A DNA stretch of 64,000 nucleotides from an uncultured Leptospirales bacterium. GTDB taxonomy: Bacteria; Spirochaetota; UBA4802; JAKQUI01. A program made the position numbers and the translations under genes. Shown here piece after piece: positions 43,304 through 48,781 of the stretch. The DNA lies in assembly GCA_964652955.1 (NCBI GenBank), contig CAZZCF010000006.1:10460-74459 (forward strand), written 5' to 3'. Every line of letters begins with the position of its first letter. Position 1 is the first letter of the stretch. The notes beneath the pieces were generated by a model. The model was given only the letters and a program-made list of their open reading frames with translations, was not told where the DNA came from and ran no database searches.

Positions 43304-44559
43304 TGCTCCTTTGTTGTTCTGTTGAGCTCATCACCCATTGTAACAAAGAATTTCTCAATTCCCGACTCGGTGAATATCGTATCGGAATACTTATCCAGTG
43401 AAGTGGAAAACTCGGCAGGATGGAGATTATAGAAGGGAACATCGATATCTTTGCTCAGCTCACCGATTCTCTCTGAGAATTCCATTGAGATATCGGGTAT
43501 GTCAATGTCGAGTTTCGGCAGCGCGCTGTATTGATCCTGAGATTCTTTCACCGATTCAACACTCTTCTGAAACTCTTCAATTCCCTTTCGTATGCCCCCG
43601 ACAAGCGCGAGAAATGATACCGATTGCTTCAAGCCCTCCTGAAGGGAATGGTATACGCTGTTGAGCTCGCTGATTTCAGCGAGGCTGTCGACAATTTCCT
43701 TCCGGTCACTGCTCAACCGCTCGCCGCAGTACTGACAGAAGAATTTGTTTTTCCGGTTTTCTGATTTGCACCGTGGACAGGAATCCGGAATCGCTCCTTC
43801 GACTTTGGAAAGGAACGGTTCATTGCCGTTGAGGGAATCAAGGACGTTGATGAAGGCGGCCTTGCCAACCAGCTCTGCCCGGTTCTCAATGAGATGGTCA
43901 AGCTTTTCAGATATGATGGAGAGCTCAACCTGCGCCGTATTCCATTCTTCCTGAATTGTATCCTCCTCGGTGGAATAGGCCTCCATCTTTTCCTGCCATT
44001 TCTGTCGGATATCCTCGATGTCCTCTGCAAGTGTATTACGATCGAGAAGAAGCAGCTCCTTCTTCTCCTGAAGTTTCCTCATTCTGAAGAGGTTGGTAAC
44101 AATACCGAAACCGGTATTGAGTTCGTCAATTTTCTGATTGTAAGCGTGTATTTCCTGCTCGAGCGCCTCCACTTTTGTCTTAATCTTTTCCTCACGGTTG
44201 TCGAGCTTCCGGTTGTTTATTCGAATGTTCTTCTGAAGTGCACGTCGCTTCTCATCGGCGGTTGCATGCTTCTGTTCAAGGCTCTTTTTCTCTTTCTGGA
44301 GTTCACGTATCTTTTCATCGAAGATCTTCTCCTGCTTCTTGTACTCATCCTCATAGCGTTGTGCAATCTCTTTCGGCAGGGCGTCGGGATCATGAAAGAA
44401 AGTATCCTGCAATACTTTGATCTCATCGAGTCGAATCTGTTTGACATTGCTGAAATTGTTGTTAAAGAATTCCTGGATGGTATCGAGCTTCTTTCGAATC
44501 TCTTCAAGTTTATCGGCTGTCTTCTTCAGGAATGATATCATGGTTGTGAGATCACCCAT
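43294..44559 (-). CDS. long coiled-coil protein with a central C4 zinc ribbon (CPRCKSE ... CQYCGERL); function unknown
   Basis: 421 aa, E/K-rich heptad regions; start overlaps the rSAM gene stop by 8 bp. Confidence 0.45.
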   Translation of the reverse strand: MGDLTTMISFLKKTADKLEEIRKKLDTIQEFFNNNFSNVKQIRLDEIKVLQDTFFHDPDALPKEIAQRYEDEYKKQEKIFDEKIRELQKEKKSLEQKHATADEKRRALQKNIRINNRKLDNREEKIKTKVEALEQEIHAYNQKIDELNTGFGIVTNLFRMRKLQEKKELLLLDRNTLAEDIEDIRQKWQEKMEAYSTEEDTIQEEWNTAQVELSIISEKLDHLIENRAELVGKAAFINVLDSLNGNEPFLSKVEGAIPDSCPRCKSENRKNKFFCQYCGERLSSDRKEIVDSLAEISELNSVYHSLQEGLKQSVSFLALVGGIRKGIEEFQKSVESVKESQDQYSALPKLDIDIPDISMEFSERIGELSKDIDVPFYNLHPAEFSTSLDKYSDTIFTESGIEKFFVTMGDELNRTTKEQWG

Positions 44560-46024: not shown

Positions 46025-48781
46025 CTAGAAGCTCGAGACGCAGGCCGAGTGGCACGCAGAATGGCAGGCCGAATGGCACACGCATGCCGAGTGGCAGGCC
46101 GAGTGGCATGCCGAGTGAACGCAGGCTGAGTGGCATGCCGAGTGGCAGGCCGAATGACAGGCGTCGTAATTGAATGAGGAGATGTTCTCGGGCAGGTTGA
46201 CCGCATTCTCCACTGCGGTTTTGACGTCCGGGGATGTGAAGAGATTCTCGATATTATCCACGACCCTGCTCGATATATCCTCGACGTTCTCGACAATGCC
46301 CTCGGAGAAATCCTGTATGCTGTCACCAAGAGAGGTCGTTGTATCCGAGAGCTTATCAAAAAAGGTAAATGTCTCACCTCGTTCAGGATCGCTCTTTGCC
46401 TGCTCCATGAAAGTGGAAGTTCCCCGCTCGAAGTTGTCATGAAGGACAATCCAGGGATGATACTCCTCGAAGTAGCGCTTCTGTTTCCCGTAGTCGGGTG
46501 CCGAATCGAAATCGCTCCAGTGGCCGGTGATCTTTCTGGTATAGGTTTCAGCTGTTTTCTCAACATCCGCCTTCCAGACCTTCCCCTGCAGGGACTTTGA
46601 GATTGATTTCAGAATAACCGGAATTCTGTTCTTGCTCAGCGTTCCGTCTTCGGCAATTGATTGCAGGAAGAGGATCTCATAGGGCTGTAATCCCTCCTCG
46701 GATCGGTTCAGTATGTTCACCTGAAGGGGATTGCGGTTCAGAATGTCGATGTATCCCCGCCTGAAGAGATCCATGATGAGAAGGTTAATCGCTTTTGAGG
46801 GCTTGTTCAGAAGAACTGCCGCTTCAATGGGCTCAAGGTTCTCCACTGTTTCTGTTGTCTTGAATGTCTCTATCTGGATCTCGGGAGCGATGTATTCCGG
46901 CTTCTTTTCAAAGATCTTTTTTATGGCGGGGTGGAATGAGGCGAGCTTCAGGAGCAGGGTGACTATTCCCGCAGCGAGGTAAAAGAGAATGCGAAAGGGA
47001 ACCAGGATGCAGTTGAGGCTGAATATGTATCCCGAGGTTATGCTGAATTTCTTCCGTCCCCGTGGAAAGAAAACCTTACTGAAGAGATCGAACTTGATGA
47101 TTTTTCCGATCAGATAGAGCGGCAGGCCGAATATCGCTATCTGAATCCCGAGATAGAGAAAGTTGAGGAAATAAGCCATGAGAAGATGCGCAATGAGCGT
47201 TCCGATAATTGTTTTCAGGAAGTCGAAGTCTGTCTCTGAGAAGGTGCCTTTGAGGAGGTCATTGAAAAGGGTCCGTAGCGCAAAACTGTCCGTCATTTCG
47301 AATTCTGCTGGAAGCACCTCGAAGAAGAGAGGAATGGCGGGAATGTGATTGCTGCTTTTAAGCGAAGCGACAATATTCACATAGGGATAGTATCTCTTCT
47401 TTTTCGTTTTATCAAGATAGGACTCTCCCGTGGTCTCGTATCGCTTGACGAGACGCATGGCTGAAAAGTTTTCCGCAATTGCAGGATCGATTATGAGAGG
47501 GAGCCTTTTGTCATCCATGGGAAAGTCGGCAGTTTCAGTATCAAAGGTTGACTGGAAGGGGGTCGTGATCCTCATTCTGATGATTTCGGGGGGCGAGGTG
47601 AAGGTCAGAGCAGGCCAGGTATATGTCGCTCTGAATGTATTGTCAAAGAGCTCGGGAATTACCTCTGCGACGATGTTTCTGTTGAGCTGTATACTGACCT
47701 TGACCGTGCTCGCGTCAATAACCTGTTTCAGTATGAGATCGAAAGCAGCGGTATCATACCGTTTCGCTTCGGTGATGGTTTCTCTGAGCTTTGCCTGTAT
47801 CTCGTTGCCGTCGACGGTGACAGTGATTTTCTCGGGGGTGATGCTCCCCTTCTGAACGCCGAGGTGAATTATTTCTCTGAAGATATTTCTTGTGCCGCTG
47901 TTGTTGATAATGAGCTCAATGGCGCTCGTCTCGGTGAGAGAGCGTAAATCCTTTCCCGGTCTGAGAAGTGTAACGCTCAGAAGTGCGCTCTTTATCGTAT
48001 AGGTTCCCTCATCGATGAGTTTGCCCACGGTGAATTCACTTGAGGCATATGTGCCGCCCGGCGCGCCAACGGAGACAGAGGTGGCAGGTATGTAAAAGCC
48101 GAGTGATTCTTTTTCGTTAGGAACCAGGTTCTCCTTCTCGGCGTGAATGGAGAGGTAGTTTTTCCCCTTCCACAGTGACGGATAGTATATCCATCGGCTA
48201 TGGCTGCTGACTGTACCTTCGCCCGTTATCAGACCATGCTTGTTCACCAGATCGTCCTTAATCATTTCAGCCTTCCGGTAGCGGCGGGGTATCTCAATGG
48301 GGAGTATGATCTCGACAATCTGTTTTTTTATCGGGAGGCTCCACTGCAGTGGTGACCACCAGAAGAAGGCGTATTCCTGCCCCTGATAGGTCGTGCTGTC
48401 GAATACCGGCTTTTCCATTTTAAATCGGAGATGTACGGTGTACAGATTATTTTTCTGCGTGTTGATGTTGAACAGCGCGGCGTAGTAGCCGTTTCCCGCA
48501 CTCTTCATGGTAACCTTGAATCGCTTTCCCTTCGCCGTACCGTAGGTTTCGAGAAAGGTTACGGGTTCGATAAACTGTCCGATAGCTTTAATTCGATCTC
48601 GCGATTCGAGCTCCCTGAAAGTGAGCTGATAGAATATCTCACTCTTGCCGTCTTTGAGAATCGTGATATGATATTTGGCCTGTTCAATGCTCACCGGATA
48701 AGAGAAAAGCTCTTCCGTGGTAAAGAAACAAACAGCCATGAGGGTAAGAAGACAGGCAAGGAGAAGTGATCGTATCTTCAT
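46025..48781 (-). CDS. DUF2207-like membrane protein (signal peptide, about 480-aa ectodomain, 3-4 TM helices, about 300-aa cytoplasmic region) ending in a tandem (Ala-Cys-His-Ser)n tail of 11 Cys and 9 His
   Basis: Signal peptide [17 protein letters not shown]; DUF2207-type N-terminal motif [19 protein letters not shown]; hydrophobic core; C-terminus [46 protein letters not shown]; stop 10 bp upstream of the rSAM start. Confidence 0.7.
   Translation of the reverse strand: [918 protein letters not shown]
46037..46162. repeat. tandem 12-bp repeat (consensus GCAGGCCGAGTG on +, about 10 copies with occasional 3-nt insertions), in frame, encoding the (ACHS)n tail
   Basis: Visible directly in the sequence; period 12 preserves reading frame; alternative-frame ORFs over it are artefacts. 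Confidence 0.9.

Follow-up and report, generated by a model that had tools for sequence, protein, structure and literature searches.

Genes and features of the locus

The 64,000-nt stretch of DNA analysed here, hereafter called the window, comes from an uncultured Spirochaetota genome and carries on its minus strand an operon of four genes (48781 down to 42746), in which a membrane protein ending in a Cys/His repeat is encoded directly upstream of a radical S-adenosylmethionine (SAM)/SPASM enzyme. All coordinates refer to the window, and all features of the cassette lie on the minus strand. The first gene (46025..48781) encodes the membrane protein of 918 amino acids (aa), the candidate substrate, whose homologues are found upstream of a radical SAM gene elsewhere as well. 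The second gene (44552..46015) encodes the candidate maturase, a 487-aa enzyme that starts with a recognition element (RRE) of the kind used for peptides that are made by the ribosome and modified after translation (RiPPs); orthologues with more than 47% identity are present in 80 genomes. The third gene (43294..44559), which according to tblastn lies directly downstream of the radical SAM gene at 71 of the 80 loci, codes for a coiled-coil protein of 421 aa that has a C4 zinc ribbon at residues 261-278. The fourth gene (42746..43303), present at 65 of the 80 loci, encodes a 185-aa protein for which hydropathy and zinc-ribbon hints in Pfam point to two N-terminal transmembrane (TM) helices and a C-terminal zinc ribbon.

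The TAG stop codon of the tail gene and the spacer behind it (46016..46027) read TAG gagaaagaa ATG. The spacer is thus 9 nt long, not 10 bp as stated in an earlier note on this DNA. Both genes share one reading frame, with nothing but TAG and three codons (EKE) between them. The stop codon is overlapped by a Shine-Dalgarno-like AGGAG, a hint that translation of the radical SAM gene is coupled to that of the tail gene. The 421-aa gene shares 8 nt with the end of the radical SAM gene, and the 185-aa gene 10 nt with the 421-aa gene. Because the junctions, in gene order from the tail gene, are +9, -8 and -10 nt, the cassette has no space for a separate small precursor open reading frame (ORF), in line with the earlier observation that none is visible. 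Promoter and terminator scans and an Rfam search over 42-50 kb gave nothing exceeding background.

The tail is a conserved repeat of His-x-Ala-Cys units

The Cys/His repeat tail comprises residues 873-918 of the membrane protein (46028..46165). It consists of DAC, three HSAC units, a Val, three further HSAC units, Val-Cys, a last set of three HSAC units and a closing VSSF, and thereby contains nine His-x-Ala-Cys units. As the translation confirms, 11 Cys and 9 His were correctly assigned to this tail before; the whole protein has 14 Cys and 21 His, so that most of its Cys fall within the last 46 residues. The strict four-residue period that had been described with them does not hold. The Cys residues occupy positions 875, 879, 883, 887, 892, 896, 900, 902, 906, 910 and 914, and the resulting spacings of 4, 4, 4, 5, 4, 4, 2, 4, 4 and 4 contain two phase breaks (5 and 2). 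In the six frames of the window, the tail is the sole occurrence of a (Cxxx)nC run with n of at least three.

Residue statistics were compiled from 146 distinct tails of homologues. Relative to Cys, position -1 is Ala in 90% and position +1 is His in 96% of the cases, and position +2 is Ser in 81% or Asp in 13%. Relative to His, Cys is found at +3 in 95% and Ala at +2 in 93%, but Cys at -1 in just 83%. The insertions (V, VC, DC) sit between a Cys and the next His, that is, between units, and in variants of the P0361 type HxAC is kept with a Val separating every unit. Since His, the Ala at +2 and the Cys at +3 are kept almost throughout while insertions part the Cys from the next His, the functional unit is best written His-x-Ala-Cys (HxAC). 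Across homologues a tail holds 4-11 of these units, and its last Cys is most often followed by V-S-x and then one to three further residues. The tail is near-invariant across phyla and represents the best conserved stretch of the 918-aa protein in the conservation profile.

Identical tail peptides in different genomes are encoded by DNA with a mean identity of 76-84% (minimum 66%), and all six Ser codons (TCN and AGY) are used for the tail Ser across genomes. Because identical peptides derive from such divergent DNA and no Ser codon is spared, selection acts on the tail peptide, and this codon analysis ruled out a DNA-repeat artefact or chance as the origin of the tail. Judged from these codons, the tail peptide is under purifying selection.

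Several relatives (P0130, P0136, P0195, P0204, P0299, P0325 and P0361) have tails with other punctuation or endings, including SCDSCHSSCDS blocks, CACACACAGGGW endings, ACVWSACHS...AGGWG and HxACV units. In an alternative frame, the tail DNA (46012-46566, minus strand) reads as ATRHATRPATRH-type repeats, and database proteins such as P0270 end likewise. Because of such endings, some family members in public sets are probably frameshifted or mis-called.

The neighbouring gene encodes an RRE-containing radical SAM/SPASM enzyme

All three domains that had been assigned to the enzyme exceed their Pfam thresholds. The N-terminal PqqD-like RRE, a peptide-recognition domain (residues 32-86; 45758..45922), matches PF05402 with 27.6 bits at a cutoff of 23.4. 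The radical SAM core (residues 118-276; 45188..45664) reaches 95.2 bits against PF04055 (cutoff 29.5) and contains the expected CX3CX2C motif at residues 122-129 (45629-45652). The SPASM auxiliary-cluster region (residues 350-418; 44762..44968), of the PF13186/TIGR04085 type, scores 39.1 bits (cutoff 21.5). A motif scan of this region found CX10GX4C at residues 352-368, inside a CX9-15GX4C match that starts from C350, and CX2CX5CX3C at residues 405-418; counting C336, the conserved Cys number eight in total. In 20 homologues C122, C126 and C129 are invariant and the Cys of the SPASM motifs invariant or nearly so.

The enzyme has thousands of relatives, among them a tight group of orthologues at 47-93% identity, and the PF05402 domain is precomputed on many of its homologues. 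A profile match to CteB (5wgg) covers residues 35-207, that is, the RRE and the start of the core. The best sequence match in the PDB is the lipid-modifying radical SAM enzyme 7tol (E 1e-23), and the match to an anaerobic sulfatase-maturating enzyme (anSME) has an E of 2e-7.

Tail and enzyme genes are coupled in Bacteria and Archaea

On the enzyme side we took one genome per species and searched 80 orthologue loci for a tail within 8 kb. These loci span Spirochaetota, Chloroflexota/Anaerolineae, Sumerlaeota, Cloacimonetes, Armatimonadota and metagenome-assembled genomes (MAGs) of Thermoproteota/Nitrososphaerota. In 66 of the 80 genomes the strand of the enzyme also encodes a near-identical tail, so that the co-occurrence of this enzyme clade with Cys-rich-tailed proteins, which the earlier note had put forward as a check, is indeed found. 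Among the 14 tail-less loci, six end at a contig edge and eight are informative, and the proportion rises to 66/74 where the flanking DNA suffices. An unrelated small precursor or a sulfatase beside the orthologues had been named as the finding that would speak against the tail as a substrate; neither was seen in the cassette or in conserved neighbourhoods, including a sulfatase with a C/S-x-P/A-x-R motif, which membership in the anSME group would call for.

The tail is mostly formed by the final codons of the gene directly upstream of the enzyme gene; in three archaeal loci it lies 4.3 kb downstream. The archaeal gene order is enzyme, coiled-coil protein, tail protein (L053, 7953-12351; also L038, L075 and L086). 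At L053, tblastn gave no match to the 185-aa zinc-ribbon membrane protein, and the zinc-ribbon spacing seen in the window (CxxC...CxxC) is absent from the coiled-coil homologue.

On the tail side, a search with residues 500-918 of the window protein revealed a wider superfamily of 550-670-aa membrane proteins ending in (ACH[S/D])n-ACVSGG-type tails. Some members of this superfamily are named from MAGs of Helarchaeota, Promethearchaeota and Ozemobacteraceae. From more distant subfamilies, six tail proteins were looked up, one of them in a Promethearchaeota MAG. All six adjoin a co-oriented, homologous radical SAM/SPASM gene and also a third gene without Pfam domains. At one of these loci (L081) the enzyme is 36% identical to that of the window over residues 6-429, N-terminal domain included. 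The third gene at L081 and L083 was considered as a counterpart of the coiled-coil gene and rejected: BLASTP finds no similarity between its product and the 421-aa protein (E 4.2), and the translated sequence resembles a multi-pass membrane protein rather than a coiled coil. Accessory genes thus change from subfamily to subfamily, and the invariant pair consists of the enzyme and the tail.

When 1.84 billion cluster representatives (50% identity clusters) were searched with the profile, 1,131 members came out at E<=1e-3, of which 184 reached E<=1e-30. Among the listed matches without a tail, many are of short length, start without Met or contain the tail DNA read in another frame.

At the P0171 locus, genes for a NifU-like scaffold and a cysteine desulfurase-like aminotransferase (10255-12409) stand directly downstream of the trio of tail, enzyme and third gene. 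This possibly reflects a link to iron-sulfur (Fe-S) supply, or a coincidence.

The carrier of the tail is a remote DUF2207 homologue

The 918-aa protein begins with a signal peptide or anchor (residues 1-26; 48704..48781), which is recognized by hydropathy and present in most homologues. It is followed by a DUF2207-like ectodomain (residues ~27-240; 48062..48703) and by an extra ectodomain segment (residues ~241-520; 47222..48061) that tblastn finds in Spirochaetota-type proteins only. Hydropathy, AlphaFold and comparison of homologues then define a long hydrophobic segment (residues 521-564; 47090..47221), and hydropathy and tblastn a TM segment (residues 585-620; 46922..47029) that is homologous to the single TM of simpler homologues and is followed by the basic sequence KKIFEKK. 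The conserved cytoplasmic domain (residues ~628-800; 46382..46900) consists of a juxtamembrane Y-x-APEIxIETF motif, a winged-helix-like unit and a helical bundle. A linker (residues ~801-872; 46166..46381), poorly conserved and modelled with a low predicted local distance difference test (pLDDT) score, leads over to the tail. Chloroflexota and archaeal homologues of 555-670 aa align in tblastn solely from residue ~575-640 onward, and the C-terminal ~300 residues are the only part conserved across phyla. Within these the tail ranks first, ahead of the Y-x-APEIxIETF motif and a ~150-residue domain, and the ~100 residues preceding the tail are variable.

The earlier note had called this protein DUF2207-like, which stands as a statement of remote homology but not as a direct family match. 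The ectodomain aligns to the family profile in hhalign with a probability of 99.8% and an E of 4.9e-29, and 22 of 60 family members match Pfam PF09972 (DUF2207). The window protein itself stays under the Pfam thresholds, with no match to PF09972 and 19.8-21.6 bits against PF20990 (DUF2207_C; cutoff 33). Its assignment as a remote DUF2207 homologue is supported by these profile comparisons. With DUF2207/TIGR04222 proteins it shares the signal peptide, ectodomain, TM, a cytoplasmic domain with a P-x-EAA-LL-type motif and a low-complexity C-terminal tail; its own direct matches to them remain below the curated cutoffs. Ordinary DUF2207 proteins have a Gly-rich C-terminal tail, whereas the tail described here, a conserved and ordered Cys/His repeat, is coupled with a radical SAM enzyme. 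For the DUF2207-like family, our literature search found a single functional study, on a Streptococcus mutans mutant.

In most homologues, an N-terminal signal or anchor, a ~230-aa ectodomain and one TM precede a net-positive stretch located just before the YxAPEIxIE motif (RGRERRRR in an archaeal example). Because of this combination of signal peptide, one TM and net-positive stretch, the C-terminal domain and the tail are predicted to be cytoplasmic in these simple homologues, for which the location proposed earlier is thus supported. Spirochaetota-type proteins add the 280-aa ectodomain segment and a hydrophobic stretch of 42-50 residues (521-564) before the homologous TM. We infer that this stretch forms a helical hairpin, so that the topology would match that of the homologues.

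The tail is the likely substrate of the radical SAM enzyme

We consider it likely that the tail is the substrate of the radical SAM enzyme. This view is based on the peptide-recognition domain of the enzyme, the coupling of both genes across the domains of life, their translational juxtaposition, the missing alternative precursor, the cytoplasmic tail and the purifying selection on an iterated unit. The coupling works in both directions (66/80 enzyme loci; 6/6 tail loci) and supports the proposal of the earlier note that the tail is the candidate substrate.

According to our model, the signal peptide would export the 918-aa protein and place the DUF2207-like ectodomain outside the cell, while the C-terminal 300 residues, consisting of a conserved GOLPH3-like membrane-proximal domain, the variable linker and the nine-unit tail, would remain in the cytoplasm. 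The cytoplasmic radical SAM/SPASM enzyme would be translated right after the tail, is predicted to dock on the tail protein via its N-terminal PqqD-like RRE and would then modify the repeat units successively. Since RRE- and SPASM-containing enzymes that act on Cys-rich cores form Cys-derived thioethers, our best guess for the product, by analogy, is a series of thioether crosslinks, one within each HxAC unit, each linking the sulfur of Cys with a carbon in a neighbouring residue and causing a shift of -2 Da. Either an alpha-carbon or an Ala-beta acceptor would agree with the variable x and the invariant Ala. The product would stay on the membrane protein as a rigid polycyclic end-piece and would act jointly with the two zinc-ribbon partners, the coiled-coil protein and the small one with two TM helices. 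Antibiotic RiPPs diversify in the core; here, by contrast, the core is invariant and the sequence around it drifts, so that the modified tail is probably kept on the protein as a structural or cofactor-like element, comparable to PQQ, mycofactocin and QhpC, that is used with the zinc-ribbon partners. The near-invariance of the repeat likewise suggests a conserved cellular role for the product, and not that of an antibiotic.

A more far-reaching version of this proposal is possible, but we regard it as doubtful. It holds that the 9-11 HxAC units are turned into a new protein-derived cofactor or a crosslinked 'ladder', and not into simple sactionines or ranthionines. The His/Cys crosslinks would then make up a metal-binding or redox-active rod, with which the DUF2207-like receptor would signal or move electrons across the membrane, and the modification would be ancient and common to Bacteria and Archaea, including Asgard lineages.

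A number of findings weigh against a modified tail or against the chemistry proposed for it. At 8 of the 74 informative loci the enzyme, usually together with the coiled-coil gene, is present with no tail gene within 8 kb. The conservation profile shows no leader-like conserved motif just before the repeats, save an aromatic residue and an Asp. The enzyme reaches no NCBIfam equivalog cutoff, and its best scores, 126 bits (NirJ2) and 115 bits (AhbD) at cutoffs of 500, go to enzymes of haem pathways. It stays far under every cutoff of the 25 listed radical SAM families, including NirJ2, AhbD, PqqE, GeoRSP, ScmE, MftC, SkfB, StsB, HxsC, ACGX and WgkB, and the related enzymes at L081 and L083 are likewise below all equivalog cutoffs. 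For the window protein itself, the claim of a cytoplasmic tail is less secure than for its homologues, since its own topology is ambiguous: AlphaFold draws residues 516-562 as a single long helix, and if this helix were one TM, the tail would lie outside the cell. Finally, the thioether chemistry is taken over by analogy from other systems; with His and Ala invariant, a three-residue C-C cyclophane from His to Ala or a metal site would be just as compatible. A metal site that is built in the tail after its modification would fit as well.

In a first alternative, the tail is an unmodified metal- or Fe-S-binding module, serving as a Cys/His-rich cytoplasmic sensor, metal store or cluster donor, and the enzyme, its functional partner, acts on something else, for instance a tetrapyrrole, a lipid or a different protein. 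Electrons or clusters would then reach the enzyme from the tail, or the tail would anchor it at the membrane. Eleven Cys and nine His within 46 residues are in accordance with such a function, and His and Cys at positions i and i+3 provide a plausible chelating geometry; in addition, the cassette holds two zinc-ribbon proteins, and at one related locus the NifU and cysteine desulfurase-like genes follow just downstream. However, metal-binding low-complexity tails usually drift, whereas register, punctuation and Ala are fixed across phyla in this one. The enzyme obtains its best family scores against tetrapyrrole enzymes and its best PDB match with the lipid-modifying 7tol (E 1e-23), but the haem and lipid family scores are far under the cutoffs and mirror a generic SPASM core. 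Moreover, its PqqD-like RRE exceeds the Pfam threshold and is kept in the 36%-identical subfamily, and such domains bind peptides. We therefore regard an unmodified metal module, whichever of these roles it is given, as unlikely.

In a second alternative, the tail would be the core of a true RiPP that is cleaved and released after modification, and the 870-aa remainder an oversized leader or scaffold. The RRE and radical SAM/SPASM architecture is typical for RiPP maturases, the tail is located at the extreme C-terminus behind a poorly conserved linker, and relatives described by TIGR04117, a predicted target family that is discussed below, are small (~98 aa according to the profile length). 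Nevertheless, we think this quite improbable. RiPP cores normally vary and their leaders are conserved, which is the reverse of what is seen here. Neither a protease nor an exporter is conserved in the cassette, whose other members are a coiled-coil protein and a small membrane protein with a zinc ribbon, while other subfamilies have a 4-TM protein. The carrier has a conserved ectodomain and cytoplasmic domain of its own, which argues that the whole protein is functional.

The weakest alternative takes the overlapping C-x3-C-H motifs as variant haem-c sites and the tail as a multi-haem electron conduit; although CHSACH can be read as CX3CH and a small ORF with a CxxCH motif is located nearby on the other strand (49322-49522), we give it hardly any credence, because most of the overlapping motifs could not be occupied, the conserved H-x-A-C unit tolerates insertions between C and H that break CX3CH in variants such as P0361, haem-c attachment is extracytoplasmic but the tail of simple homologues cytoplasmic, and no haem lyase is conserved in the cassette. 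Both the metal-tail and the CX3CH-haem explanation account for the data worse than a tail that serves as the substrate of the enzyme.

Relation to known systems

The earlier note had assumed that the system is novel. This has to be revised, since databases already hold a predicted family of Cxxx-repeat radical SAM targets. The nearest concept is TIGR04117 'Syntroph_Cxxx', a predicted 'Cys-Xaa-Xaa-Xaa repeat radical SAM target protein', together with Pfam PF27846 'tSAM_targ_Cxxx_rpt', and it is defined in silico only. Its members resemble the window protein in having a Cys at every fourth residue of the C-terminus and an adjacent radical SAM/SPASM gene. The profile of TIGR04117 is matched in its C-terminal part by P0144, P0148 and P0153, relatives of the window protein on which PF27846 is also precomputed; the PF27846 annotation is missing from the proteins closest to that of the window (P0121-P0142). 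Compared alone with NCBIfam and Pfam, the window tail hits no significant family, merely TIGR04117 with 6.9 bits (E 6.5; relatives 13-19 bits, cutoff 50) and TIL (E 0.18), and a 158-aa C-terminal fragment does not match TIGR04117. TIGR04117 is a 98-position 'paralog' model, in contrast to a 918-aa membrane protein with an ectodomain, a GOLPH3-like cytoplasmic domain and two zinc-ribbon partners. The system is thus set apart from known Cxxx targets by its large DUF2207-like carrier, the punctuated and near-invariant (HxAC)n repeat and its own coiled-coil and zinc-ribbon partners. Literature searches for DUF2207, the CXXX repeat, the TIGR0411x and PF27846 identifiers and the peptide strings found no publication on this system or its motif and no experimental study of the predicted target family.

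The maturases of sactipeptides and ranthipeptides (CteB/SCIFF, PapB/freyrasin, StsB) have the same order of N-terminal RRE, radical SAM core and SPASM domain and work on Cys-rich, repetitive substrates. PapB acts on repeated Cys...Asp motifs (PMC10739248), and StsB forms three Cys-Gly sactionines (PMC10288494). The scores are far below the cutoffs, with 80 bits for the window enzyme against StsB (cutoff 625) and 81 bits for the L081 enzyme against PapB (cutoff 340). Furthermore, their substrates are short secreted peptides, whereas the candidate substrate described here is a cytoplasmic protein tail with an invariant core and with Ala and His in place of a conserved Asp/Thr acceptor, and the cassette is without protease or exporter.

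QhpD/QhpC, PqqE/PqqA and MftC/MftA, in which cofactors are built from proteins or peptides, combine a SPASM enzyme with strictly conserved modified residues; QhpD-type enzymes are thioether formers. In these systems the strict conservation exists because the product has a housekeeping role. The scores of the window enzyme against PqqE (109 bits) and MftC (70 bits) are both generic, and the defining motifs and thresholds of these systems are not reached. Here, 9-11 iterated units are located on a membrane protein, and no partner genes for quinone formation or decarboxylation are present.

In the HXS system, the repeat protein HxsA (His-Xaa-Ser) is matured by the radical SAM enzymes HxsB and HxsC and acts as a protein (PMC13128918). 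Our system resembles it in the full-size protein, the short His-containing repeats, the radical SAM maturation proposed here and the lack of a small natural product. In contrast, the H-x-S repeat is without Cys, two radical SAM enzymes and HxsD are involved, and the product is a periplasmic effector with a peptidoglycan-binding domain; the HxsC score of the window enzyme is 75 bits at a cutoff of 268. The family library also contains ACGX and Cys-every-fifth systems as further predicted analogues. PADLOC returned only generic matches to the viperin core and to coiled coils, which give no support for a known defence system or a role in phage defence.

Radical SAM/SPASM maturases have been studied nearly always as makers of small secreted peptides. 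Here such an enzyme is tied to the cytoplasmic tail of a receptor-like membrane protein, and this coupling is found in Spirochaetota, Chloroflexota, Sumerlaeota, Cloacimonadota, Armatimonadota and in Thermoproteota- and Asgard-labelled MAGs. Once the chemistry of the tail is worked out, a new protein modification could come to light, the DUF2207-like family would gain its first functional entry point, and the predictive Cxxx-target label would rest on experiment.

Partner proteins and flanking genes

The 421-aa protein has no TM segment, and C261, C264, C275 and C278 of its zinc ribbon are invariant. Its AlphaFold model (pLDDT 89) consists of a long coiled-coil hairpin with the zinc ribbon and a helical bundle. 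Foldseek comparison of this model with the PDB retrieved generic coiled coils only (chemoreceptor, SMC, Tc toxins) and gave no functional lead. The loop at the tip of the hairpin (residues 148-156; 44092-44118, minus strand) carries a conserved N-T-G-F-G in which G150 and G152 are invariant. In the model, this glycine-rich and hydrophobic tip could be an interaction or membrane-contact site.

Outside the four genes, the neighbours (a histidine kinase, a cyclic nucleotide monophosphate-binding protein, GDPD and a transporter) do not accompany the cassette in other genomes. The kinase, a multi-PAS protein of 799 aa (49561-51960, minus strand), is encoded on the same strand upstream of the cassette, separated from it by a gap of ~780 nt. 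Divergent from the cassette, two overlapping ORFs in different frames occupy 49105-49522 on the plus strand. The first encodes 79 aa with one TM and the second 66 aa with CIGCH, a CxxCH haem-c motif. They may represent one small gene for a membrane-anchored, cytochrome-like protein that is broken by a frameshift, or two separate genes.

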